DNA of 64,000 bases from NCBI GenBank assembly GCA_965116925.1, contig OZ220744.1:4256001-4320000 (forward strand), in the 5' to 3' direction. The first letter of the stretch is position 1. Each line of letters opens with the position of its first letter. A model generated the notes under the pieces. The model saw nothing but the letters and a program-made list of their open reading frames with translations. It ran no database searches and was not told the DNA's origin. Source of the stretch: Candidatus Poribacteria bacterium (GTDB lineage: Bacteria; Poribacteria; WGA-4E; PCPOR2b). Positions 12,972-38,544 of the stretch are shown here, one piece after another. Position numbers and translations under genes: made by a program.

Positions 12972-13970
12972 TCATCTTAGGTGAGATAAGGTTTCCCGAA
13001 ACGCCTTGACGTGTGCGGGACTTGTCCCACAGCAGCCGCCAATCAGATAAGCCCCCTCTTTGATCAACTCTGGCAGATAAGGCGACATCTCCTCCGGTGC
13101 TTGGGGCCAATATGTCTGCTGGTTCTCGTCTAAACGTGCCATACCCGCATTTGGATATGCCATCAGTCGCTTTGAATTAATCCCCTTCTCCTCCATCGCT
13201 TCGCGCAGCTGCTGGATGCCGTTTATCGCATAGGGCATTCCCGTATGCTCCTCACGCCTCGATTCTGCACCGCAGTTTAGCCCTAAGATCTGAACAGAAT
13301 CGAGTAGGTTGTCTCCGTCGGAGAATTCCCCTTCGGCTAGAATTTCAACAAGAGACGCAGCCGAATGCCCCCAATCCGTTTTGTATATCACCTTTTTCGT
13401 CCGTCGATCTCTGGTGTATTTATAGGTCATATTCACGGCGATGGGAAGCCCTGTTTTTCTCGCAACGTCAACAGCGATTGCAGCCTCCTTCGCGGAGAAC
13501 ATAGTTTCAATACAGAAAAAGTCTACGCCTTCTTCTGCGAGGGCGTTTATTATCCGCTCATGTGCGTCTCTGACGGCATCATTCGCAATACCGAAGTCAA
13601 CACCGCCGCTATCGGCTTCGATTGCGCCGGGCGAGGGTCCGACTGACCCTGCAATATATACATCCCTTCCATTTCTCTCAACGGCTGCTTTCGCGTGTAC
13701 GACAGCTTGCCGCGTGATTTTCTCAGCTTCGGCTGCATCTTTCCCCGCCATTTCGAGGTGCAGGGGAGAAGCGACAAATGTGTTCGTTCCGATTGCATCG
13801 GCACCCGCTTCAATGTAAGCTGCATGAATGTCGATGACCGTTTCCGGGTGCAATTCGTTTGCCAGAGTGCTGTTTGTCAATGCGATGCCCACAGTAAACA
13901 GTTGTGAGCCAAACCCACCGTCATAAATCATTGGGGTGGGGTCTTTCAATCTATCCAAAAATGTCTTCAT
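12972..13970 (-). CDS. Stand-alone homocysteine S-methyltransferase (MetH Hcy-binding domain-like)
   Basis: YDGGFGSQL, AGADAIGTNTF, IAGSVGP, IETM, Zn ligands GLNC and IGGCCG, YPNAG. Confidence 0.9.
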   Translation of the reverse strand: MKTFLDRLKDPTPMIYDGGFGSQLFTVGIALTNSTLANELHPETVIDIHAAYIEAGADAIGTNTFVASPLHLEMAGKDAAEAEKITRQAVVHAKAAVERNGRDVYIAGSVGPSPGAIEADSGGVDFGIANDAVRDAHERIINALAEEGVDFFCIETMFSAKEAAIAVDVARKTGLPIAVNMTYKYTRDRRTKKVIYKTDWGHSAASLVEILAEGEFSDGDNLLDSVQILGLNCGAESRREEHTGMPYAINGIQQLREAMEEKGINSKRLMAYPNAGMARLDENQQTYWPQAPEEMSPYLPELIKEGAYLIGGCCGTSPAHVKAFRETLSHLR

Positions 13971-14025
13971 CTAAAGTCCTCTGATGTTTCAATAGAATTT
14001 TCACGCTACTCAGGTTTGCTCCTTT

Positions 14026-15087
14026 CTATCCCGTTGTCCAATGTTCTGGATCGAGACCGAAGCCACGTGCCTCCTCACAGATAGCCGCCCAAGTTGTATC
14101 ATCAATCTCAATACCCTCGACCTGCTTTCGTTCGGCTGTGCGAAATTCGGGTTCACCGGGAGTCAAGATCTCCTGGAATCCCGGCGCAAGGCGGCTCGAT
14201 TTGACGTGCTGAATCAGGTCCTCCACTTCATTGTAGTAGGCGTCGAGACTGGTGAAGTGAGTAATACTATAAACGGTGAAAAGCACACCATTGCTTACCA
14301 TTGTGCGTTCCCCGGCAGCACACCCCTCGCCGCTGAGAGTTCCGCCCAAAAGTTCCACCACAAAGCTAAGTCCGTAGCCTTTGTGTGCCACGACACCACC
14401 CATCGGCAGGATGGCTCCAGGTGGATCGGCTCTAAAGTCGTTCGGGTCGGTGGTCGGGTTGCCTTGTGAATCAATGAGCCAACCTTCCGGCACCTGTTTC
14501 CCCTGATTAATTGCAACGCGGACCTTACCTTCAGCCACCACGGAGGTGGTCATATCAACTAAAATCGGCTCATCGTTCCGGCGTGGGGCAGAGAACGCGA
14601 TCGGGTTTGTACTGAGGCGGCCGTCGAGACCACCGAAGGGAGCGATCTGGTAGCCGAGATTGCCGGCGTTGACGAAGGCCACTCCCATCATCTCGTTTCG
14701 AGCTGCCATCAAAGGATACGCACCCGCCCGCCCAACATGGCTCGTATTTCGCAGTGCGACGGTACCTGTTCCGTATTGTTTTGCTTTTTCGATTGCGAGG
14801 TTCATCGCAAAGGTTGCCCCGACCTGTCCAAGCGCGCTGTGTCCATCTACCACCGCAGCACAGGGATTATCACTCACAATTTCAGGCTTTGCGGTGGGTT
14901 GAAATCTACCATCTCGTATGGCACGGGCATATTCGTAGAAACGGATGGCACCGTGGGAATCGTGTCCGAAGAGGTTGGATTCGATTAGATGGTCAACAAC
15001 CGATCGGGTGTCTTCTGCTGTACAACCGGCGGCTTCAAAGAGGTCATAGCCAATTTGCCGCAGATTGTCGGGTTGGAATATAGGCAT
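14026..15087 (-). CDS. Ldh_2-family (malate/L-lactate/sulfolactate dehydrogenase-like) oxidoreductase
   Basis: GHDSHG, HVGRAG.Y, STNPIAF, DMTTS.VAEGK, HKGYGL, PGEPE. Confidence 0.9.
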   Translation of the reverse strand: MPIFQPDNLRQIGYDLFEAAGCTAEDTRSVVDHLIESNLFGHDSHGAIRFYEYARAIRDGRFQPTAKPEIVSDNPCAAVVDGHSALGQVGATFAMNLAIEKAKQYGTGTVALRNTSHVGRAGAYPLMAARNEMMGVAFVNAGNLGYQIAPFGGLDGRLSTNPIAFSAPRRNDEPILVDMTTSVVAEGKVRVAINQGKQVPEGWLIDSQGNPTTDPNDFRADPPGAILPMGGVVAHKGYGLSFVVELLGGTLSGEGCAAGERTMVSNGVLFTVYSITHFTSLDAYYNEVEDLIQHVKSSRLAPGFQEILTPGEPEFRTAERKQVEGIEIDDTTWAAICEEARGFGLDPEHWTTG

Positions 15088-15153
15088 GAAAGTTCCTTTC
15101 TGCTGTTCTAATCTATGTATGACTTTTTCATCTGGTACAGACGAGTTTTTTAT

Positions 15154-15255
15154 TATAGTAGATTTTAGAATTAATGGGACACGCCAAACCGGTGCGGTGA
15201 CAAACCGCACCTACCGGGGGGCGCAAGTGTTTCTTTATTTTTTGAATTCACTATA
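15154..15255. repeat. Miniature element family B, short form
   Basis: Ends tatagtagattttagaattaatgggacac ... gtgtttctttattttttgaattcactata with central REP ggtgcgg-aaaccgcacctacc; longer copies at 44509 and 55353. Confidence 0.8.
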
Positions 15256-15531
15256 GCTTCTCTGCTTTTGAATCTTATTATCGTGTTCTGTCTCAAGTTC
15301 TTCTACAAGTGCGTTCAGAATATCCTCCGGTTCGCCGGGACGTTCCCGCTTCTCTGTCCACTGCCACTGATCGAGGTAGTCGTCTGTTCCGGCTAAACCT
15401 GTTTCCATCGCTGTGCGATCAATCTCAACCTGAAAACGTTTAGGCATTTGCTGTGAGATTGGTTTTCTACCTTCAAAGACTCTGACCTGCGCCGGAATAT
15501 CTTTCCAATATAGGATTTGATACATTGCCAC
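15235..15531 (-). CDS. 'Virulence factor' family (CvfA-like/Virulence_fact) small protein
   Basis: YQILYWKDIPAQV...RFQ..IDR.AM..G...TDDYL.QW pattern. Confidence 0.75.
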   Translation of the reverse strand: MAMYQILYWKDIPAQVRVFEGRKPISQQMPKRFQVEIDRTAMETGLAGTDDYLDQWQWTEKRERPGEPEDILNALVEELETEHDNKIQKQRSYSEFKK

Positions 15532-15534
15532 GGT

Positions 15535-16569
15535 TCAACCCTCCAATTCTCCCTTGCGATAGGCACGCAGGAATGTTCTACAGAAGCGATCTTTGCCCAG
15601 CATCATATCTTCGGTCAGTTGATAGGCTTTTGACGATCGATCAACGGCGAGGGCTTTCTGCGGATTGTTGGTCACAGGGTCGATGATCCCGCTATCGGCA
15701 CCGGCTTCGACCGCGAGAATCATAAACACATCATTGATGAGACGACGGGAGGGCATCTGGAAGGAGACGTTGCTGAACCCACCACTGATATGGATAGCGG
15801 GACCATACTTCTCACGGAGTTGTCGGATAGCTTCAAAAGCGTGGTTACCGTTCTCTGTATCTACCCCAATCGGAAAGAACAGCGGATCGATGAAGATGTC
15901 CTCGGTCGCAATACCTCTGTCGTGCGCTGCGTCTACCATGCGTGAGGCGTTGGCGACTCGCTCTTCGGGGGTCTGTGGCATTCCAGATTCGCTGGCGGCT
16001 GTCACCATAACCTTCGTATTGTACTGTGTGGCGAGGTCCAATGCGTCAAGACGTTCCAGCGATGCGGAGTTGAGTAGTGCCCGCCCAACACTGCTATCAT
16101 ACACCTCAAGTCCTGCCGCTATAATTTCGCTGTTGGAGGAATCGATGGACAGGGGTGTGTCAGTCATCTGCTGAAGGGCTTGTACCAACCAGCGCATGGC
16201 TTCCTTCTGCTCTTCAAGCCGCCACGAAATTTCATCAACATTGACATCAAGGAAGTCGGTGCCGGAATCGACCTGCCGTTGGACGATTTTGCGTATGTAC
16301 TCCACACCTTCGCTGGCGTGGGGTTCTTCACCCGACATCGCCGCCTGAACCGCGATGATGACATGCTTGACGCGTCCCTCCTCATATTCTTGGGATTTCT
16401 TGATAGATTCGGGAATAACGAGGTAGCGGCGTTTTTTATTTGTATCCAAATAGCGGACGGATTCAATTCCATCTGGATTGTTCGTAACCAGTTTTCCGTT
16501 TCGGCGTACCACCCGCGTGGTATGGACATTTTCGCCGATGATGATAAAATCCTGATCGTTTATTTGCAT
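15535..16569 (-). CDS. Pterin-binding methyltransferase (AcsE / MetH folate-domain-like, DHPS fold)
   Basis: IIGENV, FLDVNVD, PLSIDSS, LLNS, IFIDPL, GFSNVSF, GIIDP. Confidence 0.88.
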   Translation of the reverse strand: MQINDQDFIIIGENVHTTRVVRRNGKLVTNNPDGIESVRYLDTNKKRRYLVIPESIKKSQEYEEGRVKHVIIAVQAAMSGEEPHASEGVEYIRKIVQRQVDSGTDFLDVNVDEISWRLEEQKEAMRWLVQALQQMTDTPLSIDSSNSEIIAAGLEVYDSSVGRALLNSASLERLDALDLATQYNTKVMVTAASESGMPQTPEERVANASRMVDAAHDRGIATEDIFIDPLFFPIGVDTENGNHAFEAIRQLREKYGPAIHISGGFSNVSFQMPSRRLINDVFMILAVEAGADSGIIDPVTNNPQKALAVDRSSKAYQLTEDMMLGKDRFCRTFLRAYRKGELEG

Positions 16570-16627
16570 CTTTACCCCTCTAATGTGTAGTGAGTAATGC
16601 GTAAAGAAGCCCTTTATGTATTACGTA

Positions 16628-18232
16628 TTACTCGTTATTCTTCGCGTGATGGTCTCGCTCCAGAAAAGTGTTGCCCCAAGCACTTGTGCCGTTGAGGGCA
16701 CCGTCCTTGAAAATCGCTGGACCATCTAACATCGTTTCTTCTTCACCGTAGGCTTTGAGACGGCCATAAGCCCGTGCCCAGATACAGTCCTTCTCTCCAA
16801 TTTCGCATTTACCCTGACGGGTTCCACCGCACGGTCCGTTGCGTTGGTTTTTCACGCACTGAGATTCAGGACATAGATACGCAATATCGGGCAGCGAGCA
16901 GTCGCCGCAGTCGCGACAGTCAAAGGCGGTGACCTTCACCGCTTGTTCCAAACCGTGCATGGCTTTTTTTATCCCCTCGCTTGCCCCGTCAATCGCTTGA
17001 GAGATCCGCTTACCGACATTGAATCCCGCGCTCCCCTTTTCAAAAACTTGGTCGTGCACCACACGGTTCATCTTATAGCCCAAGGGAATTTCTCTCTTGG
17101 CGGTTTTCAAGGCTTCCGGCCGTTTTGAAAAGAGATACTCGCGATTAATCTCAGTTGAACTGAGTCCGGTATCCGTTTCCGGTTCAAAGAAGTAAAATTC
17201 GTCGGGATAGTGGAAGCAAATTTCTTTGGCGAAATCCTTCCAATCGTCCTCACCAAAGCGATCTACTATCTTCAGAATTTTCACATAGTCTGTATAGCGT
17301 AGATGACCGCCTAGGTATACGCCGCGATAGCCTAGTCCTTTGGCGATGGCACACTGCTTAGCTGCGAATTCCAAGAGGAAGGCTTTGCCCTTGTCCTTTG
17401 ATTTTCCCTCTTTTTCGACTCGGTCAAGCAGCTGGTCGGTTACGGTCACGCCGGGGATGTTCCCCTTATTGAAAAAACGGGCGGCGGGTCGGCTGAGAAC
17501 GTAGACGTTGCCAATCACCGGGACATTCAGATTGTGGGTCGTCATATACTTCAACAATTCATCCTGTTTGCGTGAGTCGTACCCGATCTGGTTGATGATG
17601 AACGCAGCACCGTTCTCAATCTTCTTTTTTAGCTTGAAATACTGTGGCATAACCTCGCGTTCGTAACGTTTGTGGTTGTTGATCGCCGCACCCAAAAAGA
17701 AATTGGTGCGCTCCAACACCTGCGATCTTCTCCCTGCCCCTACCGTCATACCGGCGTTCATGTCAGCGAACATCTTCAGCAATCCTACGGAGTCGGTGTC
17801 AAAGACGGGACTCGCTTGACCACGATACCCATCGATCGGGTAATCGCCCGACAACGCTAGGATATTGTGAAACCCTTCGCTAGCAAGCTGCCATGCTCGG
17901 CTCTGAAGCGCGTTGCGGTTCCAGTCTTTGCAGGACAGGTGGATAATCACTTCCTGTCCACGGGAGAGAAGGTCTCTCCCCAAGGTATCGGGACCGATCA
18001 TAGCGTTGCCGCCCGGATTATCGGTGATGCTCAAGCCGTGTATGCGCGGATTGTCTGCCAGCTTTTGCGCCAATTCCAATACCCGCTCTCCATCGGGATC
18101 GGTCATAGTTCCACGCGAGGTTACCACTTCCACACAAGTGAGGAATGTATCTGTCTCCTGAAGCAGATGGCGGAATGAGGACCTCTGTGAAGCGTCAAAG
18201 TTATGGGCTGTTTTGGTGGGGGATGTATTCAT
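16628..18232 (-). CDS. metF: Methylenetetrahydrofolate reductase with C-terminal MetV-like Cys-rich domain
   Basis: SITDNPGG, IHLSCKDWNR, NILALSGD, KKIENGA.FIINQ; C-terminal CRDCGDC...CPESQC.KNQRNGPCGG...CE...CIW. Confidence 0.85.
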   Translation of the reverse strand: MNTSPTKTAHNFDASQRSSFRHLLQETDTFLTCVEVVTSRGTMTDPDGERVLELAQKLADNPRIHGLSITDNPGGNAMIGPDTLGRDLLSRGQEVIIHLSCKDWNRNALQSRAWQLASEGFHNILALSGDYPIDGYRGQASPVFDTDSVGLLKMFADMNAGMTVGAGRRSQVLERTNFFLGAAINNHKRYEREVMPQYFKLKKKIENGAAFIINQIGYDSRKQDELLKYMTTHNLNVPVIGNVYVLSRPAARFFNKGNIPGVTVTDQLLDRVEKEGKSKDKGKAFLLEFAAKQCAIAKGLGYRGVYLGGHLRYTDYVKILKIVDRFGEDDWKDFAKEICFHYPDEFYFFEPETDTGLSSTEINREYLFSKRPEALKTAKREIPLGYKMNRVVHDQVFEKGSAGFNVGKRISQAIDGASEGIKKAMHGLEQAVKVTAFDCRDCGDCSLPDIAYLCPESQCVKNQRNGPCGGTRQGKCEIGEKDCIWARAYGRLKAYGEEETMLDGPAIFKDGALNGTSAWGNTFLERDHHAKNNE

Positions 18233-18262
18233 GGTTGTGGGCTCGCTTGACTATGCTTAGGT

Positions 18263-19798
18263 TTAATAACCTTCTGACTTACACCATATTCTGCAATAAA
18301 CATCTTCTATCTCATTCAATGTTGTTTTCGACACATCTCCATATTCCTGAGATTCTTTTATTGCTTTAGATACGGAGTTATTGCACTGTTTCAGCTCTGA
18401 ATCCGTTGGATTCACAATGGGCATACGTTTCAGGTAGTTTGCTGAATTATTGGCTGTCGGGTTAATCTGACGAAGCAATTTAGTTGCAAGCTCCGTGTTT
18501 AAGAAACCGAGAAAATACATCAAGAGTTGTTCATTCTTAGGGAAGATGCCAACGATGCCTTGATCAAATAATCTACCTTCAAGCAATGTGGCAGTGAGAC
18601 GTGCTGACGCTACCATTGGAACACCAATTCCCTCCGAAAAATAGTACTGAGAATTCTGAAATCGAGCCGGATTCTTTCCCGGTGTTCGATATTTAGAAAC
18701 AGCCTCCTTGCTCCAATTAACATACCATTGCGTTTGTTTTACAAAGCGAGCTGCACCCCCTCGTAATACTGGGATGAAGCAGTTGGGGCCATCAATACCA
18801 TGAAGTGGTGGCACTGTGAGATCGGAAATTTTATCAACTTCGACATCTGCAAAAGATTTTGAACGTGGTATGTCAGCGTTGGCGCGGCGTACCCAATGAC
18901 GGTCATTACCTGAGTAAAAGCCGGTACGCACGTTAGCTATATCGCCCAAAGTCAAGTTGGCTCTGCTACTGAGCGTAATTCCATCGTCTTGTGATGGTTT
19001 CACGAATTCTGCACATGGTCGCGATAGGATTTCCTTTTGACTGATATTTGTAATTAAACACCGATTTTTTGACTCATATCCTAGAGCCAATTCCATCAAA
19101 ACATTCGCATTAGCAAGGTTCTCAATTATTCTTATTTGATGCGCCCTGTGAGTGGGCAGCTTGATTAAAGAGATAATACATAGCCCAGAATACCCAAAGC
19201 TAATTCCCGGAAAGAACTTTGATGGGAACAGTACGATTTCCTCAATGGTTGATTCATTCAGTAAGGTTCTTCGTAGGAAATCGTGGCGGTGAAGCCATAG
19301 AAATGTATCCGGGATGATAAATACCAAGCGACCTTCCTGATCTAGCAAACGAAAACAATGATAAAGAATTACACCATAGGTATCGCGCACATAGAGCCCC
19401 GGATAGCACTTCTTGAGAACGGCTCTTCTATGATGAGACTGATAAGCTCCATACGGAGGATTAGCAATGATGCGGTTGAAACGGATTTCTGGCTCAAATA
19501 AGGGGGAATGTCCTAGTTCAAGCACATCCTCATGCACGACCTTGATATTTTGGAATTGCTTATATTTTTCCTTGAGCGTGGTCGATGCCTGAGGGTCAAG
19601 TTCAGATGCCCGAATTTGCGAATTTGGGGATAACCGAATAATTCCATCAATTAAGTCACCAGCTCCCGCACAGGGTTCCCATATCGAATCCGCTGCGGTT
19701 GGTTTAAGCCGAGAAACCATGTATGAAACAATATCGGGCGAATCGGTATAATGAGCTTGGAACGTATCTCTATATCGTTGAGGTCTGGGGGTTACCAT
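18263..19798 (-). CDS. N6-adenine DNA methyltransferase, gamma class (TaqI/Eco57I-like)
   Basis: Motif I WEPCAGAG precedes motif IV IANPPY; C-terminal TRD-like region; visibly more AT-rich than neighbours. Confidence 0.9.
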   Translation of the reverse strand: MVTPRPQRYRDTFQAHYTDSPDIVSYMVSRLKPTAADSIWEPCAGAGDLIDGIIRLSPNSQIRASELDPQASTTLKEKYKQFQNIKVVHEDVLELGHSPLFEPEIRFNRIIANPPYGAYQSHHRRAVLKKCYPGLYVRDTYGVILYHCFRLLDQEGRLVFIIPDTFLWLHRHDFLRRTLLNESTIEEIVLFPSKFFPGISFGYSGLCIISLIKLPTHRAHQIRIIENLANANVLMELALGYESKNRCLITNISQKEILSRPCAEFVKPSQDDGITLSSRANLTLGDIANVRTGFYSGNDRHWVRRANADIPRSKSFADVEVDKISDLTVPPLHGIDGPNCFIPVLRGGAARFVKQTQWYVNWSKEAVSKYRTPGKNPARFQNSQYYFSEGIGVPMVASARLTATLLEGRLFDQGIVGIFPKNEQLLMYFLGFLNTELATKLLRQINPTANNSANYLKRMPIVNPTDSELKQCNNSVSKAIKESQEYGDVSKTTLNEIEDVYCRIWCKSEGY

Positions 19799-20790
19799 GT
19801 CAAGTATTTGACCAAGTCGTTTTGTTCAAGGGAATTTCGGAATTGGGGACTTACATCATCCATCCAAGTAACATTTTCGTGCATCCATCCACCTAAATCA
19901 AAGCCAGAATATTCTAACACTTTCGGATAGGTTTCTGCTCCACAATAAACTTCCCAGAGGTCTGACCCCTTCAGTATTTGAAGGTAGTGGTTATTTTCAT
20001 CTTCAGGTGCTCTCACCAAGAGAAGACACCGATAATCTTCTGGCTCTATGTGTTGGTATATACTAGCAACCAGAAATAAACGGTTGGTGTTTCCTTTTTC
20101 ATTTGAGCCGAAACCGCTCTTACAATCGACTACATACCGCGTACCTTCAATTGAGAAATGCAGATCCAATTCAAGTTTAATTTCACCCGATGTGACAAGA
20201 TGCCAAACTTGGTCATAGTAGCGGAGAAGTTGTTCTTTATCTTCCCTGCTGATGTTTAACCCTTGAATAAAATCTCGAACCTCGTTGGTCAATCTTTTCC
20301 TGATTTCCTCAAATAAAGGAGGGATGAATAAGGTAACATCTTTTCGTATCGGGTAATCAAAGCAAGTTGTGACGAAAGGCTCCCAGAGTTCACCCATTCT
20401 GCGAGAAAAAGCCATGTAGTCATAGGACCATACGTCATTCCGGCTCTCAAGCATCACGACATTCGTACAGTGCATTAACAAAAGGTTGGCTCGGAGGATT
20501 GAATCCGTTTGCCAATCTTCTCGCCCGGCATTTTGCCGTATAACAGCAGCTAACTGCTGTTTTTCTTTCGCAAGTGCACGGTTAATTGCTGTCGCTCGTT
20601 GCCTAAATTGCCTTTCGCCAAACTCCTGCTTTATCTCGTTAAGATATTCGATGGCTCTGAACCTGAGATAGGAAAGCAATTCGGCTTTACGTGAGTTGAA
20701 ATCCTTGTCGACTGATATAGACATCTGCATTCGTTGTAGCAGTTTTGCGTAACGGTCACATTTTGTGCAATAGATGGCTATATTACACAA
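19792..20790 (-). CDS. Putative type II restriction endonuclease (PD-(D/E)xK)
   Basis: ELDLHF...VVDCKSG motif; stop overlaps the MTase start; true start probably near 20729. Confidence 0.65.
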   Translation of the reverse strand: MCNIAIYCTKCDRYAKLLQRMQMSISVDKDFNSRKAELLSYLRFRAIEYLNEIKQEFGERQFRQRATAINRALAKEKQQLAAVIRQNAGREDWQTDSILRANLLLMHCTNVVMLESRNDVWSYDYMAFSRRMGELWEPFVTTCFDYPIRKDVTLFIPPLFEEIRKRLTNEVRDFIQGLNISREDKEQLLRYYDQVWHLVTSGEIKLELDLHFSIEGTRYVVDCKSGFGSNEKGNTNRLFLVASIYQHIEPEDYRCLLLVRAPEDENNHYLQILKGSDLWEVYCGAETYPKVLEYSGFDLGGWMHENVTWMDDVSPQFRNSLEQNDLVKYLTW

Positions 20791-21580
20791 ACAGTGGTGT
20801 TCGCTTCGGAGGACCGAAACCGAGTTCCACCAACCTTGAGACTATTCGTCGGAGTCGAGGACGGTCACTGTTGACCAGCTCCTCTGGTGGATGTAGTGAA
20901 TAGTTCCAACCTTCATATAGTCCTTTGACGTAAGCGATTTCCTCATCTGTCACGGGGTTTGCCATGAAGTTGATGGCGTGTTGGGAGCGTCCCGGTGGAC
21001 CGCCGAACGCACCATGCCATAGTGTTTCTGGAAAGACTATGACATCGCCGGGTTGCGATTCGACGACAACGCTGGGCACATCCGCGCCTGCAACCCCAAA
21101 CGGCATCGCGGTCGGATTATCCTGCTGTGCACTCAACGGCTGTATCCGTTTCCTATATTCTAATTTATGAGATCCCGGAATGAAACGCAGTGCGCCTGTG
21201 TCTTTGATGTTTGGCTCAAGGTAGAATGCGATCTTGATGTGAGGCACCGGTTCTGGGTCAAGTCCCCCGCCGTGCCACTGGGTGTCGCCGACATGGAGGT
21301 TGCCCTCGGTAGCGTTCAAGATGAAGTCAGGTCCGAGGAGGTCTTCGCCTAGCGCGTAGATGCGGTCATCCTCAATGAGCCATTGGAGTCGGGGATTCAA
21401 CTCGAAGAACGGGATCATGGCTTGCCGCTTTTCTCCGGGGAACGGCTTGCCTTGACGGTTTTCTCGCAAAACCGCGTCAGACTCACGACGGATGATGTCA
21501 ATCTCATGCGGGGTAAATAGCTGTCGAAGGACAAGGAATCCAAACGTCTCAAAGTGCTGTTTCTGCTGAATCGTTAGCAT
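20783..21580 (-). CDS. PhyH-family Fe(II)/2-oxoglutarate enzyme with HxG motif
   Basis: FETFGFLVL, QWHGG, GALRFIPGSH, PGDVIVF...LWHG, distal R. Confidence 0.8.
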   Translation of the reverse strand: MLTIQQKQHFETFGFLVLRQLFTPHEIDIIRRESDAVLRENRQGKPFPGEKRQAMIPFFELNPRLQWLIEDDRIYALGEDLLGPDFILNATEGNLHVGDTQWHGGGLDPEPVPHIKIAFYLEPNIKDTGALRFIPGSHKLEYRKRIQPLSAQQDNPTAMPFGVAGADVPSVVVESQPGDVIVFPETLWHGAFGGPPGRSQHAINFMANPVTDEEIAYVKGLYEGWNYSLHPPEELVNSDRPRLRRIVSRLVELGFGPPKRTPLFV

Positions 21581-21597
21581 GTTTACCTCTTTCTCGA

Positions 21598-22218
21598 TTA
21601 AGAGTTATGGCTGCCGTTGAGCTGCTTTTCACATGCCGTAAAAATAAAGTCAAGGATTCCGAATACTTTGGCAGGATCGGTTATTGAGTATGCAAGCGGA
21701 TGTTTCGCGAAGATATTTGTCTGCAACTTGCCAAACTCCCAGATAATCCCTGTTGACACGATTCCATACACGGTAACCTGTTCATCCGCATTCAGCTTTT
21801 GGCACGCTATCAGTTCCGCCAAGCATTGTGCCCAACCTCCTTCAAAATCCTGTTTTTTTGCCTCTACCACTGCTAGCAGGGGACGATCCACCAGCTTATC
21901 GGTCACGCCATCAACCCACGCTGACACAAAGTAATCCGGTTCCCCATACAACTCGTTGTCAACATTCAGAGCGCGCTGGGACCACAATTTCAGGGTTTCA
22001 TGGCGCTTCCACGCCTGCTGCAAAAACGGAAAAATGAAACTTTCCCTTAAAAACGTTTCACTTTCTTGAATCGCCTGTCTGTCCAACAAGAAATCTAGAT
22101 TCTCAATAAACCAACTGGGAGGTTCAAGCCGCAGATCGGGTATAAATCGTTCTGGACGGATTTGTAGGGGATATGTTTGAATAACTTGTTCTACACTTTT
22201 GAAATCGCTGTATGCCAT
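21598..22218 (-). CDS. Conserved hypothetical PD-(D/E)xK-fold protein
   Basis: MAYSDFK, G.PDY, VVEAKK.DFE.GWAQC.AE, YGIVSTG..WEFG. Confidence 0.6.
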   Translation of the reverse strand: MAYSDFKSVEQVIQTYPLQIRPERFIPDLRLEPPSWFIENLDFLLDRQAIQESETFLRESFIFPFLQQAWKRHETLKLWSQRALNVDNELYGEPDYFVSAWVDGVTDKLVDRPLLAVVEAKKQDFEGGWAQCLAELIACQKLNADEQVTVYGIVSTGIIWEFGKLQTNIFAKHPLAYSITDPAKVFGILDFIFTACEKQLNGSHNS

Positions 22219-22250
22219 CTGAATATCCTGCGTTCTGACTATCATCGTTA

Positions 22251-22278
22251 GTAGGGAACGCAGATCTGCGTTCCCTAC
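22251..22278. repeat. 28-bp perfect palindrome (REP family C)
   Basis: gtagggaacgcagatctgcgttccctac; further copies at 24060, 32665, 35051, 40014. Confidence 0.9.
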
Positions 22279-22309
22279 TGAAATGCGTAAGTCCTAATCT
22301 GCCCATTCA

Positions 22310-24265
22310 TCACACAAAGTCCATCGGCATCGGCTTAAACTGGCACCCTTCGACAAATACTTCAAAGAAGTCAGCGGTTGTTTCCAATTCGACATGTTCA
22401 ATCCCTTTGACCAGACGCTCGATAGCCTCACGTTTCTTGCGTGAGAGGAGAACCTCCTTCGCCCCTTGTACCGCGGCATTGCCGATCTTGACGATGCGAT
22501 CTTCGTCCACCGGTGCCAAAAAACCGATCTCAATTGCATTACGAACATCCACATAGTTGGCAAAGCCACCCGCCAGATAGAGGCGACTCACGTCCGCCGG
22601 ATTGATCCCGAACTTTCGCATAACGATGAATTGACCGCAGTAATTGGCAGCCTTCGCTTGAGCTAGATTGCTAGCATCTTCGCGGGAGAAGGTGATGTCG
22701 TATTCTGGTACGATTGGTATCTCTCGCGTTTTTCTGTCCCCGAATACACCCATTTCAGTCATCCGGTCATGGCGACGGAGTTCTGCCAGTAGATCGATTA
22801 GACCGGAACCGCAAATCCCTTGGGGGGCAACGCCGCCGATTGTACTATATTCAACCTGACCGTCTTTCCATCGGATCGACTCGATCGCTTCGTCGTAGCC
22901 CGGCATCCCGTATTTAATGCCGCCGCCCTCAAAAGCGGGACCTGCTGGACAGGAAGCGGCAATCAGCCGCTCTGGGTGTCCGACCACCACTTCGGTGTTT
23001 GTGCCGACATCCACTAGCATGACGACCTCTTTCTGGGATGCGATGTCGAGTGCGACCAGATCCGCTGCAACGTCGGCACCGACATGGCTGCCGATCAATG
23101 GCAGTCCATACACCTGTGCCTTGGGGTTGGCTCGGATTCCGAGCCGCCGCGTCTTCTCAATGAGCGACGTGGTTTTGCGATCGCCGGCGTGATATTGATG
23201 TTCGATTATCGATTGGTAAGGCTTTTGACCGATGCTCTGCACATCTAGCTTAAAGAAGATGTCCCGCATCGTCGAGTTGCCGACCACGACAATCTCGTAA
23301 ATTTCTTGGCGGACAAACCCTAGTTGTTTCGCCATCTCCTGAATCTCGTGGTTGAGCGCGTTGATGACCGCCCAGCGTAACTCCCCGCCAAACTCTCCAT
23401 CATACGAAATGCGGTGCATGATGTCGCTGCCGCCGAATCGTTGTGGGTTCTCAAAGGAACTGACATGGACGCTTTCACCTGTCTCCAAATCGACCAAGTC
23501 GATGACTACTGTTGTGGTGCCGAGATCAATCGCCAAGCCGTAGATGTGACCGCGATATTTGTCAACTGCCTCATCATCATAGTAAACCATATTTTCGCGG
23601 CGCGTTACTAATGGGTCAATTTGGAGAGGTTTTTCGTGTGTGCGGGTAAGGATCTTGGGAGTACGCCGCACTGGCAGGAACTCAATATTGACATCGGCGT
23701 CCTTAACCATCGCTTGGCAGGCGAGCCGATAGTTCTCCCGCAAAAACGACTCGGCTTCGTTCCGTGGGCGCAACGCCTCCATCCCCTCTTTGATCTCTAC
23801 AATACATTCATGGCACTGTCCGGTGCGGTAGCAGGAGGTCGGCACCTGAACTGCGAGTTCATCGGCGTAATCAAAAATGGTCTTCCCGGCTGCGAGCGGA
23901 TGCTTTTTGCCGTCATGCGTTACTGTTCCTACCCCGTAGCTTACTTCGCTGTCGAGGAAAGCACCTTCGGCAGCTTCGGTTTCCCACGCAGTCCGATAGT
24001 CAATTTTATCGTCTCCACCACACAAAAGTAATTCCTCCTCTGGTGCCCCGCGAACGCTAGTAGGGAACGCAGATCTGCGTTCCCTACCCACCAAACCCTC
24101 GCTAGGCGGTTTTCGCTGGTTTCGGCACCCAAATTTAGCAGTACATTGATCGAAGCGGTTTTTGTACGGGCATCGATGCATAGATTGCACGTCGGCATGG
24201 GCAACCATGCTTGAGAACATCTCTGATATTTTATCTAAACGTTTTTGATACTCTTCTTTGCTCAT
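22310..24265 (-). CDS. Reductive activator of corrinoid proteins (RACo/RamA, ASKHA ATPase, 2Fe-2S domain) with extra N-terminal Cys domain
   Basis: SC..TGQCHEC...RLACQ ferredoxin motif, AIDLGTTT, NPQ.FG.D, HVGAD, DVGTNTE, AGPAFEG, GICGSG, LAGGF, GNAA..GA. Confidence 0.92.
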   Translation of the reverse strand: MSKEEYQKRLDKISEMFSSMVAHADVQSMHRCPYKNRFDQCTAKFGCRNQRKPPSEGLVGRERRSAFPTSVRGAPEEELLLCGGDDKIDYRTAWETEAAEGAFLDSEVSYGVGTVTHDGKKHPLAAGKTIFDYADELAVQVPTSCYRTGQCHECIVEIKEGMEALRPRNEAESFLRENYRLACQAMVKDADVNIEFLPVRRTPKILTRTHEKPLQIDPLVTRRENMVYYDDEAVDKYRGHIYGLAIDLGTTTVVIDLVDLETGESVHVSSFENPQRFGGSDIMHRISYDGEFGGELRWAVINALNHEIQEMAKQLGFVRQEIYEIVVVGNSTMRDIFFKLDVQSIGQKPYQSIIEHQYHAGDRKTTSLIEKTRRLGIRANPKAQVYGLPLIGSHVGADVAADLVALDIASQKEVVMLVDVGTNTEVVVGHPERLIAASCPAGPAFEGGGIKYGMPGYDEAIESIRWKDGQVEYSTIGGVAPQGICGSGLIDLLAELRRHDRMTEMGVFGDRKTREIPIVPEYDITFSREDASNLAQAKAANYCGQFIVMRKFGINPADVSRLYLAGGFANYVDVRNAIEIGFLAPVDEDRIVKIGNAAVQGAKEVLLSRKKREAIERLVKGIEHVELETTADFFEVFVEGCQFKPMPMDFV

Positions 24266-24337
24266 TGGTTTATTGGTGCATTAGTTCATGAAAACAATCC
24301 CAATGTTTTAACATTGGGTCAAACGGCGTAACTTTAG

Positions 24338-24366
24338 TTGATTTTGCGTATAAATGATGGTATACT
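24338..24366 (+). promoter_or_regulatory. Sigma70-type promoter inside the element
   Basis: TTGATT-17 nt-TATACT with TG in the extended -10 position. Confidence 0.6.
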
Positions 24367-24372
24367 TTTGAT

Positions 24373-24708
24373 ACGTCCAAAAGCGGGAGAATGTCACCCT
24401 TGCAGCCTTGCAAGGTCTCCCGCCTCTCCAGTGACATGGGGACTTTGGACGGGTGGCTAACCAAGCCATACTGGACGAAAACCAAGTCCAAAATTGTATA
24501 ACCGTCGCGGCGGGACACGCCGAGACGTAAAAATGCCTGTGGAGGGGCTGTAAGACCACGCTATTTTGCATGGCAAATCTCATCGAAGCAGGTATACGGC
24601 AGGGGTGCCCTTAGCGGGGCACACCCGTAAGTCCGTTAAAAACTCTCGAAGGAGATACAAAGTGATTACTAATAAGAATCCCAATGTTTCAACTTTGGGA
24701 GCGGTCAA
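24373..24708 (+). ncRNA. Putative structured RNA: 5' pseudoknot domain plus TnpB omega/reRNA-like scaffold
   Basis: Nested stems gtccaaa/tttggac, gcgggaga/tctcccgc, ccttgca/tgcaagg; tnpB 3'-end-like gcctgtggaggggctgtaagacc...gaagcagg. Confidence 0.6.
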
Positions 24709-24710
24709 TC

Positions 24711-25478
24711 CTACTCATCGTCCCAATCCTCGTCATCTTCTTCGAGGAATTTCTTTGCCAACGCCACGCATTCAAGGGCATCCTTGCCGTATCCGTCCGC
24801 CCCCATATCGTCGGCGAACTCTTGGGTCACCGGGGCACCGCCCACCATAATCTTAACATCTTCCCGGAGATCTTCATCAATAAAGGCTTCGATTGTTTTG
24901 CCCATATTCGGCATCGTTGTGGTGAGCAACGCTGACATTCCGAGCACGGGTGCCTCATGCTCTTCTACCGCTTCGATGAACTCATCGTCCGAAGTGTCCA
25001 CCCCCAAGTCGTGTACGACAAATCCTGCCCCCCGCAACATCATAATGCAGAGGTTCTTGCCGATGTCGTGGAGATCGCCCTTCACCGTTCCCATGATTAC
25101 AGTCCCGATGGGATCGATACCGGAGGCAGATAGAATCGGTTCAATATACGCCATCCCAGCCTTCATCGCTCGCGCACAGGCGAGGACTTCCGGGACGAAG
25201 ATAAAGTTCTCTCGAAACTTGATCCCAACAATCCCCATCCCTGCGATGAGTCCGTCATCCATGATTTCGAGTGCTTCGGTGCCTGACTCTAGGGCGGCTT
25301 TGGTCATCTCATCCACACCATCGTTGTCTCCGTCGATGAGTGCTGCGGCGATGTCTTGCATCTCAGGGGTGGTTTGGGCAAATGTGTTAATAGCGCGCTC
25401 CCGTTCATCGGGACGCTCAATAAACTCCTCAATTTCGTCTACGATAATTTCATTCTGAATGTCAGTAATTTCTGCCAT
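24711..25478 (-). CDS. Stand-alone corrinoid (cobalamin-binding) protein, MtaC/MetH-cap-like
   Basis: GM..VG.KF...FVPEVL cap, GTVKGDLHDIGKNL (DxHxxG), MSALLTTTM, VGGAP. Confidence 0.95.
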   Translation of the reverse strand: MAEITDIQNEIIVDEIEEFIERPDERERAINTFAQTTPEMQDIAAALIDGDNDGVDEMTKAALESGTEALEIMDDGLIAGMGIVGIKFRENFIFVPEVLACARAMKAGMAYIEPILSASGIDPIGTVIMGTVKGDLHDIGKNLCIMMLRGAGFVVHDLGVDTSDDEFIEAVEEHEAPVLGMSALLTTTMPNMGKTIEAFIDEDLREDVKIMVGGAPVTQEFADDMGADGYGKDALECVALAKKFLEEDDEDWDDE

Positions 25479-25529
25479 AGTTTTTTCTCTTTGGATTTTA
25501 AGTAAATTCTCGCAAAAGTTGATGTTTTG

Positions 25530-25940
25530 TTATTGGTATAAGCCTAATTCAATCAGACGTTGTCGCTCCGCAATACGTTTTTCATCGTTAAAACGCAGAA
25601 TTTTTACTGTTACTCGTGCTTCAGCAGTAAGAGCACGGATTACCCCTTTTTCTAACTCAAAATGCCTGTCCCAGTTTTGAGTGCGCGGATTAAAAAATGG
25701 AACGAGTGTTCCTGTCTGTGGGTCGAATGAGCCTACGTTTGGTCCTTTGTAGCGATTACAGTACATACAAGAAAGTGCAAGATTTCTCTCATCCGTATTT
25801 CCACCATGCTGACGGGGCACAATGTGATCTGGCTCGTGCTTGTGCAACGAAAACGACTGGGGTAAGAGACAATATTCGCAGCGATTGCCGGCACGCCTTA
25901 CGACGAATTGACGTACACTTGTAGATAGACCGGAAGGCAC
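25530..25940 (-). CDS. HNH endonuclease family protein
   Basis: RAGNRCEYC, DHIVPRQHGG, NLALSC..CN..KG, FFNPR..W..HF. Confidence 0.85.
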   Translation of the reverse strand: MPSGLSTSVRQFVVRRAGNRCEYCLLPQSFSLHKHEPDHIVPRQHGGNTDERNLALSCMYCNRYKGPNVGSFDPQTGTLVPFFNPRTQNWDRHFELEKGVIRALTAEARVTVKILRFNDEKRIAERQRLIELGLYQ

Positions 25941-26300
25941 TTAGGCTCCCTGTTTTAGCTGTGATGTAACTTGTGTCTTGAGCATGATGACAATATGCTC
26001 AATTTGTTGCAGTTCATCGAGTTCAAGTTGCTCCATCTCCGATAACAATCCCGCTTGATTTAGTGTGAGCAAGCGTTGAAGCCTCTCCTGCGCCCGTTCA
26101 GAAACGTGATAGTCAAGTACCTCCTGCGGGTCAGGGTTTTTTGATAAAAACTGAATTGTCTCGGATGCGGTAGCAGCGGCCAAGGTCTTGAATCCGATGA
26201 GACTCAACTCGATAACAGTTGGAAGCCAAGAGCCAATCGGCTGAATTCGTCTTGCCAATTCATCAGGAACCTGCATTGTTAGCTGAACCATATTCTTCAT
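25941..26300 (-). CDS. Hypothetical antitoxin-like partner of the HNH gene
   Basis: N-terminal LT..VPDELA (RHH-like), RLQ.LL..N..G.LS..E..ELDE; abuts the HNH start. Confidence 0.55.
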   Translation of the reverse strand: MKNMVQLTMQVPDELARRIQPIGSWLPTVIELSLIGFKTLAAATASETIQFLSKNPDPQEVLDYHVSERAQERLQRLLTLNQAGLLSEMEQLELDELQQIEHIVIMLKTQVTSQLKQGA

Positions 26301-26332
26301 CCTTACCAACACGGAATGTCTCTGTCCGGTCT

Positions 26333-27388
26333 TTAATTCAACTCCACATGTTCTTTGTGCCAATCCTGCACCGCTTTGGGAATTTCTTTGAGATTTTCAA
26401 TAGCGGTCTGCAGCGGAATCGCACACTCTGGACCGACAAGCTGCACACCGGACTCCAGATTCTTGTAGACTTCTCCCCTAACGTCTTCGGGCCCTTTTGA
26501 GAAAAGCGTCTCAGGATTGTTAATGTTTCCGACCAGAGAGATCCGTTCCTTCACGACTTCCATGGATTCACCGGGTTCGTTTTTGGAATCGTAGTGGAAG
26601 GCTGCCATTCCTGTTTGGGCGATATATTCCATTCTGTCCACCGTCCGCCCACAGATATGCAGAATCAGCGGAATGGGAATCCGATCGACAAACTCAGTGT
26701 GTAGATCGCGGAGGTAACGCTCATAGTATTCGCCACTGACCAGATCGCCCGTTGCGTGGTCGGGTAGGGTCAGTGCATCTGCTCCCGCTTCAATCTGTGC
26801 GACTCCAAACTCTATCGTGGCTTCCTTCAACTTATCAAGCGCGAGTTTCGTTTGGCCCGGATCGTCCAGAGATAGCAGCAAAAAAGGCTCCACGCCGAAA
26901 CAGTGATAGGCCTGAGACCAAGGTCCCATCGTCTTTCCAATAATAGCGACATCATCCCCGTATTCCTTCTTGAGAATCTTAATCGCGTCGAGCACGCATT
27001 TGGTATCCTGATGCGTCAAAAAGTCTGATGGGATCTTGATTTCATCGACATCCTCCCAGATCGGTTCACGCATTCTGACCGTGGGCCAATTATCCTTCTG
27101 CTCCCATTGGATCTTGCATCCGAGCGCAGAGGATTCTTGGATGATCGTGAAAACAGGCATAATCGTATCGAAACCTAACTCAGTATACCCGGTGGCGGCT
27201 AAACGTGCCATCAACTCAGGTTGACGGTTGGCTTCCGGGAATGGTGCGTCCACCAAGTCCATCAGTTCTACTGTGGCGACAGATGTTGGATTGCAGATTG
27301 GTGTTCGGTCCACAGGTTCTCTCTTCAACGCTGCCAAAACCCGTTCCTTACCGGTCATCGGTCCGACTGTTTGTTTTTGGGTTCCCAT
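26333..27388 (-). CDS. MtaA/CmuA-family methylcobamide methyltransferase (URO-D fold)
   Basis: MTGKERVLAAL...VDR.P, ESSALGC, GPWS, AGAD, Zn ligands LHICG and GPEC, VGNI. Confidence 0.88.
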   Translation of the reverse strand: MGTQKQTVGPMTGKERVLAALKREPVDRTPICNPTSVATVELMDLVDAPFPEANRQPELMARLAATGYTELGFDTIMPVFTIIQESSALGCKIQWEQKDNWPTVRMREPIWEDVDEIKIPSDFLTHQDTKCVLDAIKILKKEYGDDVAIIGKTMGPWSQAYHCFGVEPFLLLSLDDPGQTKLALDKLKEATIEFGVAQIEAGADALTLPDHATGDLVSGEYYERYLRDLHTEFVDRIPIPLILHICGRTVDRMEYIAQTGMAAFHYDSKNEPGESMEVVKERISLVGNINNPETLFSKGPEDVRGEVYKNLESGVQLVGPECAIPLQTAIENLKEIPKAVQDWHKEHVELN

Positions 27389-27397
27389 ATTTTCCTC

Positions 27398-28033
27398 CTA
27401 ATTCTGTTGGCTTGGGGCTGCGAGGACGCCACGCGATGCTGCCATCTCCTGTTCCCGCACGATGGCACGTACATTCGGGGCGCGAACCAGCAGCAAACCG
27501 AGCAGCGCGTCATGTGAGTGCCCACACGGAAACGCAACCGTATCGAGCGTTCCATCCACCTCTTCCATCTCTCCCAATTTCATTAAACCGCCAGCAATTG
27601 CGGAGATACGCCTCTCGGCGCGTCTGCCCTCGCCATCAGCCCGCACTTGGTAAATCCCTTCTCCAAGGCTATCAACCGTGATGGTAAGCCCCGATTTTTT
27701 GTCCAAGATCTGTAAGGGACGCGGTTCCACCGAATCGTTCGGAGAGAGCTTACAGGACTCCAGAAAAGTTCGCTTGCAGGCTAGCTGGTGTGCTGCCTCA
27801 CAGGGAAACTGGAGCAGTCCATTTGTATCCTCAACTAAATTTCCCATGTGCGTCATCGTATTAACCGCAAACTGGATGCGCCCCTGAGCCCCTTCCATCT
27901 GGCTGTAGGTATGCACTAAAAACAGGGGACTTTCATCCTGCCCCTGCTGGTATAGGGCGATTGTAATATCGTGGAAATGAGGGTCCATCGGGACCAATTC
28001 AATACGTTTTCCAATATCGACCGTTTGACCCAT
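27398..28033 (-). CDS. Conserved hypothetical protein, first gene of the methyltransferase cluster
   Basis: 211-aa ORF with GAGGAG RBS, 9 nt before the MtaA-like gene; two FPC motifs; no family recognised. Confidence 0.7.
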   Translation of the reverse strand: MGQTVDIGKRIELVPMDPHFHDITIALYQQGQDESPLFLVHTYSQMEGAQGRIQFAVNTMTHMGNLVEDTNGLLQFPCEAAHQLACKRTFLESCKLSPNDSVEPRPLQILDKKSGLTITVDSLGEGIYQVRADGEGRRAERRISAIAGGLMKLGEMEEVDGTLDTVAFPCGHSHDALLGLLLVRAPNVRAIVREQEMAASRGVLAAPSQQN

Positions 28034-28665
28034 GGTTGTCTCCTCGTTATCATTTTGGTTAGGTTAAATAAACGCAAAGACGCAAAGTCACAAAATGTCT
28101 TATCGACACGATTTGGCAATTTGGCAGGGCACTGGCAGGTCCAAAAAAAAATTTCAATCTCACATCGGGGGTTTATCATTAGCCGATGTCTCTCTGAACC
28201 CTGACGGGGCCTAGCTTCAGGGCGTTTGTAGATTTTTACCACGCAAGAGAAGAGGCACCCAGACGGCTTTTTGACCTGCCAAATACGCACTATTTATGGA
28301 TCGTTTTTCACTGAAATGCTACCATAACCGCGCCAAATGTCAGGGATTTGGCAGGGCACTGGCAGGTCAAAACTCTGAAATGCGTAAGTCCTGTAATTGT
28401 TTTCACATTTCATGCGCCTTGTGTTTTGCACTTTCTTTTTCGCTCATGTTAAGAAATCGTGCAACAGAAACCGAGTTTTCAAGAAAAAACTCGGTTTATC
28501 TTTCTGCTGTGCGCTTTCTTTTTAGATGAGCCGTAGCTTTTAGCTCTTAATTTTGCTTGACAACGGAACGTTTTATTCGCATAATAATTAATGGTCTGAC
28601 CTTTGTGGCATAAGTTTAACCCAAAATTGGGGAATTGTAAAGCAAAATTTTTATTAAGGATTTGA

Positions 28666-29263: not shown

Positions 29264-30031
29264 ATGCCATTGCAGCGTTTTTCACTATCGTATGTTATGA
29301 AAATGCAAGAACAGGAAAAATTAGCGGTGAAAGAAATGAAGCCCGATACCCGCACCTCTGTGAGTGATGGGATTGTAGAGCAGATGGTTGACCTTATTTC
29401 CCGGGACGTGCTGAAACCCGGGGACCGGTTGCCTTCTGAGCGGGAATTGTGTAAGCGGTTGGGGGTGGGGCGGAGTTCTTTGAGAGAGGCGTTGCGTTCC
29501 CTTGCCGTCATGGGGATTATAGACGGACGGGTTGGAGATGGCACCTTTGTTTCTAACAGCAATAAGCGGTATCTGGAGAAAACGTTACAGTGGGGGTTGC
29601 TGCTTGACCGTAAAAGGGTTCAAGACCTTATCGAAACTAGGCTTATGTTAGAATCTCAGACAGCGTTTCTGGCTGCACAGCGCGTCACACCTGAGAATAT
29701 TGAGGCGATCGAGGAGACCTTGCGGGGGATGGAAGCGTCGATCGGACAGCCTGAGAAATACTTGGAGTTCGATTTACAGTTTCACCTGACCATCGCACGC
29801 GCAACACAAAATTCGATACTCTACAGCCTTCTGAGCATGATACGGGGTTATCTGCAAGAGTGGATTAAGGGAAGTCTCGCTGAGCCGTCAACAGGTGAGG
29901 AGACGCGGGCAGAATTGTCGTTACTGGAACACCGGAAAATCCTTGATGCCCTGAGAAAGGGAGAGGCGGATCAGGCGCAGCAGGCGATGACGGAACACAT
30001 TCTCTCCAGTAGCGTAGATCTTCAGAGGTGA
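29264..30031 (+). CDS. GntR/FadR-family transcriptional regulator
   Basis: PGDRLPSERELC..LGVGRSSLREAL, FCD domain FH..IA.A..N; start may be 29303 or 29336. Confidence 0.92.
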   Translation: MPLQRFSLSYVMKMQEQEKLAVKEMKPDTRTSVSDGIVEQMVDLISRDVLKPGDRLPSERELCKRLGVGRSSLREALRSLAVMGIIDGRVGDGTFVSNSNKRYLEKTLQWGLLLDRKRVQDLIETRLMLESQTAFLAAQRVTPENIEAIEETLRGMEASIGQPEKYLEFDLQFHLTIARATQNSILYSLLSMIRGYLQEWIKGSLAEPSTGEETRAELSLLEHRKILDALRKGEADQAQQAMTEHILSSSVDLQR

Positions 30032-38505: not shown

Positions 38506-38544
38506 TTAATATGAGTGACAGCCGAAAGGAAAAAAAACAGAAAA

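Follow-up and report, generated by a model that had tools for sequence, protein, structure and literature searches.

A cluster of corrinoid-dependent methyl-transfer genes (12972-28033) was analyzed in a stretch of 64,000 nucleotides, hereafter the window, from the genome of a Candidatus Poribacteria bacterium (contig OZ220744.1, positions 4,256,001 to 4,320,000). The core of this system consists of five genes, encoding a protein of 211 amino acids, an MtaA-like methyltransferase, a corrinoid protein, a RACo-type activase and a homocysteine methyltransferase. These genes are kept and lost together, and the accessory folate arm leading to C1 oxidation is dispensable. Both conclusions are drawn because one family of Poribacteria (f3) keeps the core without the gene for the pterin-binding methyltransferase and because one genome (G027) has lost both halves of the system. 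We propose, with a confidence that is evenly balanced, that the five proteins form a folate-independent relay in which a methyl group is passed from a methyl-sulfur compound via the corrinoid protein to homocysteine, giving methionine. A preliminary description of the locus had named seven co-oriented genes of corrinoid methyl transfer, and all seven were confirmed on the minus strand (12972-27388) with scores above the Pfam cut-offs. The description had missed the 211-residue protein (the partner kept most constantly, encoded by the opening gene of the span), a divergent FadR-type regulator and a Cys-rich module of the RACo protein. The source genome is a 6.47-Mb single contig (99% complete), and tblastn searches with the window proteins found each module to be single-copy, the exceptions being the homocysteine methyltransferase, of which a second, distant one exists, and Ldh_2, which has many paralogues. 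Carriers of the system are represented here by metagenome-assembled genomes only.

The MtaA-like and pterin methyltransferase genes were surveyed in 120 genomes of the phylum and the other modules in 40 hand-picked genomes of that set. One MtaA-like orthologue per genome (81-98% identity) was detected in 109 of the 120 genomes, namely in all 18 genomes of family f1, all 9 of f2, 80 of 82 of f3 and 2 of 3 of f4, with none in the 8 genomes of other families; within one Poribacteria order, 109 of 112 sampled genomes carry the gene. The pterin methyltransferase orthologue is present in f1 (18/18), f2 (9/9) and f4 (2/3) and was found in none of the 82 f3 genomes. Full metH genes were detected in 21/21 f3 genomes tested and in 0/10 genomes with a pterin orthologue, and one genome (G003) contains only the C-terminal half of an f3-type metH. 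Orthologues of the corrinoid protein (80-92% identity) and of the homocysteine methyltransferase (63-88%) were found in one shared set of 30 genomes out of the 40, to which 20 of the 21 f3 members belong, and 29 of these 30 also have a near-whole gene for the 211-residue protein and the MtaA-like gene; the homocysteine methyltransferase gene of genome G062 is in two pieces. Twelve of the 13 f3 loci that were fetched show the order corrinoid protein, RACo and homocysteine domain without folate genes, and the pair of 211-residue and MtaA-like genes is located elsewhere. In the thirteenth, the homocysteine gene maps far away. MetF-MetV was not seen in the f3 corrinoid loci. The ratios of nonsynonymous to synonymous substitution rates (dN/dS) in f3 pairs were 0.03 for the MtaA-like gene, 0.04-0.07 for the corrinoid protein, 0.05-0.09 for RACo, 0.08-0.15 for the homocysteine methyltransferase and 0.12-0.13 for the 211-residue protein, and all five core genes are under purifying selection in this family. 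In genome G027 (one contig, 94% complete), only fragments of the 211-residue and homocysteine methyltransferase genes remain, 2.4 Mb apart; this genome yielded no MtaA-like or corrinoid orthologue, and the two stretches retrieved from it contained no match to RACo. Both unlinked halves of the system have decayed together in G027.

Gene order was compared in 100 loci around MtaA-like orthologues (20 and 80 from two sets, of which at least six represent the same genome fetched twice). The 211-residue gene is found upstream of the MtaA-like gene in 99 loci, with a gap of at most 150 nucleotides in 89 of them. Counts of the genes downstream, which are limited by flank length, were 38 for the corrinoid and RACo genes, 33 for MetF-MetV and the pterin methyltransferase, 29 for PF13769 and 28 for the homocysteine domain. 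The preliminary description had named a lack of synteny in relatives as a refutation, and the synteny proved to be conserved: the same order recurs in records of Latescibacterota, Gemmatimonadota and Acidobacteria, there in compact form, and in metagenome contigs, and therefore is not due to chance. Thirteen metagenome loci contain a distant homologue of the 211-residue protein; the MtaA-like gene (77-83% identity) comes next in nine of them and the other four end at or just after the homologue's gene. Two further arrangements were observed outside the Poribacteria. A Gemmatimonadetes record (L120:6246-8272) contains a second homocysteine methyltransferase and a URO-D-family open reading frame (ORF) just beyond the regulator, and plasmid 1 of Gemmatirosa kalamazoonensis (L123:9971-14983) carries genes for a corrinoid protein, RACo and a homocysteine domain, with no MtaA-like pair in the part that was inspected, which makes it a candidate for a cultured split MetH.

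The MtaA-like protein (26333-27388) matches the URO-D family of Pfam, with predicted zinc ligands H244, C246 and C322 (plus D267), and the motifs of the three His and Cys ligands are kept in 100/100 loci. The genome contains two URO-D genes, one of them in the cluster. The protein passes TIGR01463 (MtaA/CmuA; 249.3 bits with a cut-off of 235.4) and falls below the equivalog cut-offs of methanogen MtaA/MtbA (NF040654, 241.5 versus 400 bits; NF041608, 204.2 versus 600 bits). Its best match of solved structure is Methanosarcina MtaA, a methylcobalamin:coenzyme M (CoM) methyltransferase, with 192 bits, compared to 43.5 bits and 26% identity for CmuA. The earlier assignment as an MtaA/CmuA-type input enzyme thus stands with respect to the family and to the linkage with a split methionine synthase set, and its CmuA side is weakened. 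A His-Cys-Cys zinc site is described as a mark of S/Se-methyltransferases, while O-demethylases replace one or both Cys residues (available part of PMC10418091). Since such a site is predicted in the enzyme, whose similarity to methanogen MtaA greatly exceeds that to CmuA, a methyl-sulfur donor is favoured over halomethanes. The protein is 77-89% identical across families and phyla; because of this conservation and its presence in almost the whole order, it probably handles one specific, common compound.

The 211-residue protein (27398-28033) contains two Cys-x3-His pairs (C78/H82 and C170/H174) and an invariant D17, with a motif conservation of 67-69 of 71-72 alignment rows. No Pfam family was matched, and 1059 homologues were found, the most distant of which (P0370 and P0384) lack one or both Cys-x3-His pairs. 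The structure model is confident (predicted local distance difference test score of 89.9). Foldseek gave no match at E<=0.001, and the best VIA fold match (Z 7.0, root-mean-square deviation 3.5, 94 aligned residues) covers residues 1-99, with the second half of the protein scarcely sampled. A search of the atlas with this protein yielded no usable match. An internal repeat is suggested by the motif and secondary-structure pattern only, and BLASTP of the two halves against each other gave no match. Longer, fused forms were looked for and none were found, which is weak evidence; a single record (P0328) seems to be fused to the MtaA-like N-terminus, but it has the look of a frameshift and was set aside. 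The protein is 44-65% identical in other families and phyla, compared to 77-89% for the MtaA-like protein and approximately 80% for the corrinoid protein. Where the cluster is split, its gene stays with the MtaA-like gene and not with the corrinoid gene.

The three remaining core genes encode the proteins that would carry, activate and accept. The corrinoid protein (24711-25478; cap and B12-binding domains, DxHxxG at residue 135) is encoded by the only gene for a stand-alone corrinoid protein in the genome. The RACo/RamA-type reductive activase (22310-24265) combines Fer2 (2Fe-2S) and RACo domains, and its N-terminus contains the additional Cys-rich module of about 98 residues, which is fused in 41 of 61 loci and a separate ORF in the other 20; this module has no Pfam match, and its matches in the atlas were unnamed clusters scoring below 0.9. 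The stand-alone homocysteine S-methyltransferase domain (12972-13970; S-methyl_trans) has three zinc-binding Cys ligands, with the Zn-Cys motifs present in 37/37 copies.

The accessory folate arm is composed of a MetF-MetV fusion (16628-18232; methylenetetrahydrofolate reductase and Cys-rich DUF5981), which is the only methylenetetrahydrofolate reductase in the genome, and a pterin-binding methyltetrahydrofolate:corrinoid methyltransferase (15535-16569; Pterin_bind, PF00809, with an MtrH score below cut-off), whose gene lies 10 kb from the MtaA-like gene. A small accessory protein of family PF13769 ("Virulence_fact"; 15235-15531) is encoded in 11 of the 40 genomes (f1 3/3, f2 6/6, f3 2/21). 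The preliminary description had viewed the Hcy, pterin and cobalamin genes as MetH domains in separate proteins served by RACo, and had raised the question of a full metH. The domains PF02574, PF00809 and PF02607+PF02310 are indeed found in three separate genes, as in the Phaeobacter-type split methionine synthase, accompanied by the Fer2/RACo activase, and no match over the TIGR02082 cut-off was detected in the single-contig, 99% complete genome. Because a full metH is missing, these three modules (pterin, corrinoid and homocysteine) likely work together as a split methionine synthase. The suggested routing of methyl groups to C1 oxidation is weakened as a defining feature by the 80 f3 genomes that keep the MtaA-like gene without a pterin orthologue, and by the enzymes of the genome itself, in which FolD is present, Fhs was not found and full-length PurU was not found (the best being a 29% partial match).

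Several other genes of methyl and sulfur metabolism were observed in the genome. A stand-alone MetH reactivation domain (PF02965; L001:1477-2319, G000:C1:4018223-4019065) has an altered SAM-site motif and is approximately 25% identical to f3 MetH, and similar copies occur in genomes G061 and G001. The second homocysteine methyltransferase (L005:1387-2373) adjoins an OYE-family flavoprotein gene. From its sequence features we take it to be BHMT-like, and it possibly opens a route from betaine or S-methylmethionine that needs no cobalamin. Core-MetE-like ORFs (PF01717; L007, L008, L009 and L010) were identified at four unlinked places, one of them apparently frameshifted, and the three that were scanned scored below every methionine-synthase equivalog cut-off. 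A lone gene for ComA (phosphosulfolactate synthase; L160:9158-9970, G000:C1:201157-201969) was found with no other CoM genes recognised alongside. Neither the methanethiol oxidase family nor the cysteine/mercaptopropionate dioxygenase family was found in the genome, which therefore gives no downstream support for methanethiol or mercaptopropionate as products.

How the five core proteins might cooperate can be outlined from the f3 arrangement. No more than two partners are evident for the f3 corrinoid protein, so that homocysteine and methionine must be linked by the core reaction to whatever the MtaA-like (or 211-residue) protein takes as its substrate. In the proposed relay, the MtaA-like enzyme would act as the input step, like MtpA or MtsA, and strip a methyl group from a thioether or methylthiol; candidate donors would be methylmercaptopropionate, dimethyl sulfide (DMS) or methanethiol, methylthioethanol and methylthioacetate. 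A precedent for an MT2-family enzyme in the input position is MtpA, which uses methylmercaptopropionate (available part of 10.1101/548461). The RACo protein would reduce the corrinoid to Co(I) at the expense of ATP, the 211-residue protein may be a metal-binding helper, and the homocysteine domain would be the methyl acceptor module that yields methionine. In the genome studied here, the pterin methyltransferase and the only methylenetetrahydrofolate reductase would plug methyltetrahydrofolate into the same corrinoid protein and secure the supply where metH is absent. The split MetH would thereby replace metH, and surplus methyl groups may enter the folate pool. We infer the direction, the substrate and the role of the 211-residue protein from the observed gene content, motifs, co-distribution and selection.

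A number of observations weigh against this relay. The usual direction of MtaA-family enzymes is opposite to the proposed input role, and thermodynamics disfavour the methylation of Co(I) by a thioether, which was seen only at high substrate concentration (available part of 10.1101/548461), so that it must be pulled by homocysteine. In f3, the folate domain of MetH itself could in principle reach the stand-alone corrinoid protein. The split set is not the only possible source of methionine in the genome, which holds the second homocysteine methyltransferase and the core-MetE-like ORFs as other possible methionine synthases. Genome G042 (50 contigs, 90% complete) has the corrinoid and homocysteine methyltransferase genes, and no MtaA-like or 211-residue gene was found in it. 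The loss of the pterin gene in f3 is probably a single event in related genomes, and the genome counts reflect few events because the genomes are kin. Moreover, the exclusion between the pterin gene and metH is not universal: among 16 carriers outside the Poribacteria, nine have the pterin gene without metH and four have both. The remaining three have no stand-alone pterin match and all have a full metH, which speaks for the relay. The neighbours shared beside the cluster include no conserved gene that would indicate a substrate; in other phyla, oxidoreductases of sugar type, isomerases and a HAD hydrolase adjoin it.

The canonical direction of the zinc enzymes is preserved if the 211-residue protein represents a new class of donor-activating methyltransferase (MT1), with the MtaA-like enzyme and the homocysteine domain as two outputs that each methylate a thiol. 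We consider this unlikely, even though the two conserved Cys-x3-His pairs, the invariant acidic residues and a gene that is never parted from the MtaA-like gene are all in its favour. Against it, the protein is far less conserved than the MtaA-like and corrinoid proteins, its gene follows the former and not the latter when the cluster splits, and its Cys/His pairs are lost in the most distant homologues. The MtaA direction and the best solved match, a methylcobalamin:CoM methyltransferase, would also agree with an outward flux, in which methyltetrahydrofolate or methionine donates the methyl group to a small thiol (sulfide, methanethiol or a CoM-like compound), so that methyl sulfides are made or detoxified. 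This we regard as quite unlikely, since f3 genomes without the pterin enzyme would have to use the homocysteine domain for the demethylation of methionine. In favour of an outward flux, ComA was detected here and in 15 of the 16 carriers sampled outside the phylum, but it was found in only one of the 40 Poribacteria genomes, 29 of which carry the MtaA-like gene; ComA does not track the module in this phylum, and a CoM link was rejected.

A methyl-selenium donor, as proposed for type 1 mlp clusters, is improbable. The His-Cys-Cys site would fit selenium ligands as well (available part of PMC10418091), selA was detected in 49/49 genomes tested, including every carrier, and a tRNA-Sec is encoded in this genome. 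However, selA belongs to the background of the lineage, as it is also found in non-carriers (2/2 in the order, 4/5 in the class) and in 52 of 61 genomes of a control phylum sample (51 of 60 without genome G160); it was discarded as a link to selenium, and no selenium gene was seen beside the cluster. There is little chance that the MtaA-like enzyme acts as an O-demethylase on sugars or sugar acids that carry methyl groups. The FadR-type regulator, with NanR and LldR as its closest matches, and the sugar-type enzymes that adjoin the cluster in other phyla would suit such a function, but both Cys ligands, of which O-demethylases replace at least one (available part of PMC10418091), are kept in all 100 copies, no O-demethylase structure is among 19 PDB sequence matches, and sugar-type neighbours are common in these genomes. 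The chloromethane or halomethane reading of the preliminary description, a Cmu/Mec/Cdm-like enzyme feeding C1 oxidation, is the least probable: the TIGR01463 family includes CmuA, PurU adjoins the cluster in 3 of 13 metagenome loci and the UroD superfamily has evolved haloalkane activity on several occasions (available part of PMC13222342), but the low CmuA score, the lack of any genomic match to cmuB or cmuC at E<=1e-3 or to DUF1638 (PF07796; MecG-type), the missing Cmu and Mec partners (judged from the accessible parts of 10.1101/2021.08.30.458270 and PMC13222342), the description of CdmB as an enzyme without zinc (same part of PMC13222342) and the dispensable folate arm all weaken it.

The logic of a shared corrinoid hub with a RACo activase is already published. 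As far as the accessible parts of PMC5764234 and PMC12478193 describe them, the split methionine synthase of Phaeobacter inhibens and the MtgBCDE/MetF2/RamA hub of Ruegeria pomeroyi resemble the present system in their separate pterin, corrinoid and homocysteine modules, the RamA/RACo activase, MetF beside the pterin gene, the lack of a full metH and a single corrinoid protein that is apparently common to methionine synthesis and a substrate-specific methyltransferase. In contrast to Ruegeria, the substrate module consists of the MtaA-like zinc enzyme and the 211-residue protein, and the MttB family (PF06253), to which MtgB belongs, has no match in the genome. The DUF1638 partner of the Phaeobacter and Ruegeria systems is missing, and the constant module is homocysteine and not pterin. 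Methanosarcina MtaA, MtsA/MtsB and MtpA/MtpC share the URO-D fold, the His-Cys-Cys zinc site and a cognate corrinoid protein (PDB 4ay7; available part of 10.1101/548461), whereas the enzyme described here scores below the equivalogs, belongs to a bacterial host and has a homocysteine module as acceptor in the place of CoM and methanogenesis. Type 1 mlp clusters have in common with it an MtaA-like protein with zinc ligands of the S/Se type, a corrinoid protein and Ram/RACE, and a connection with methionine salvage has been proposed for them. According to the available part of PMC10418091, these clusters contain two or three MtaA-like genes and are defined by no tetrahydrofolate methylase within 20 kb, unlike the single MtaA-like gene, the homocysteine module and the frequent folate methyltransferase of the cluster analyzed here; they are found in obligate anaerobes only. 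The Cmu (Methylorubrum extorquens CM4), Mec and Cdm systems similarly follow the logic of a UroD-superfamily methyltransferase, corrinoid protein, folate methyltransferase and MetF. The present system differs from Cmu in having separate genes for the methyltransferase and corrinoid domains that are fused in CmuA, no CmuB/CmuC and low CmuA identity, and from Mec, in which MecF and MecG accompany MecE, MecB and MecH, in a folate enzyme of PF00809 in place of the MtrH-family MecF and the absence of MecG; the optional folate arm sets it apart from these haloalkane systems in general. A search of the freely accessible literature, judged mostly from listings, found no paper on this cluster or on the pair of MtaA-like and 211-residue proteins in these phyla.

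The seven named genes are not contiguous, and seven other genes on the same strand are interspersed. An ORF of 118-140 residues (118 in the gene list) and an HNH nuclease gene (25530-26297) separate the MtaA-like and corrinoid genes; the nuclease occurs in 4/100 loci and its small partner in 7/100. This passenger pair is absent from contigs of four public runs, in which position 26345 is joined directly to 25484. Between the RACo and MetF-MetV genes, Pfam and the locus comparison identified as passengers a 215-residue ORF, a PhyH dioxygenase, a putative type II restriction enzyme and an N6-adenine methylase (18263-22245). PhyH occurs in 17/100 loci and the methylase in 6/100, and the 215-residue ORF and the restriction gene, both outside the 100-locus tally, were seen only in f1 loci. 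The low GC content of the putative restriction-modification pair (18263-20790; 0.42-0.43) accompanies its insertion in some f1 genomes, and the restriction gene is in two pieces in G061. An Ldh_2-family dehydrogenase (14026-15087, start derived from 353-residue orthologues) occupies this position in f1 only; it is found in 16/100 loci and has about 18 paralogues in the genome. The divergent GntR/FadR-type regulator (29264-30031, plus strand) lies outside the span described previously, is present in 34/100 loci (at least 50% identity) and also stands beside the 211-residue gene in several metagenome contigs. Intergenic palindromic repeats at 28431-28520 and 15141-15215, which BLAST matched to about 400 and 350 places in the genome, resemble repetitive extragenic palindromes or miniature inverted-repeat transposable elements, and one of them overlaps the over-extended start of the Ldh_2 ORF. 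Elsewhere in the window, a PhyH domain is fused to HEAT repeats (38515-39927), one of six PhyH-family genes, and adjacent ICL/PEP-mutase-family (6232-7125) and citrate-synthase (5068-6189) genes are possibly prpB-prpC of the methylcitrate cycle. An Rfam search of the window gave no match, and promoter-like sites occur at chance level (21 versus 20.9 expected). Coverage of the genes by four metatranscriptome runs (two studies) consists of contigs that may include DNA.

The natural loss pattern narrows the problem to a five-protein system that is open to reconstitution and screening. Bacterial MtaA-like clusters were found in anaerobes only, according to the available part of PMC10418091, and no role has been assigned to the MtaA-like enzymes of other bacteria. 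A further-reaching interpretation, which we hold to be possible but doubtful, is that a widespread and undescribed B12 route exists among sponge symbionts as well as marine and soil members of several bacterial phyla, in which the methyl group of a thioether such as methylmercaptopropionate or DMS would be transferred directly to homocysteine by means of a methanogen-type zinc enzyme that is activated by a new metal-binding family. If this is true, methylated sulfur would have, outside the methanogens, a bacterial sink that has gone unrecognised, and, with methylated sulfur as the donor, sponge symbionts would have an unrecognised part in the cycling of sulfur derived from dimethylsulfoniopropionate.

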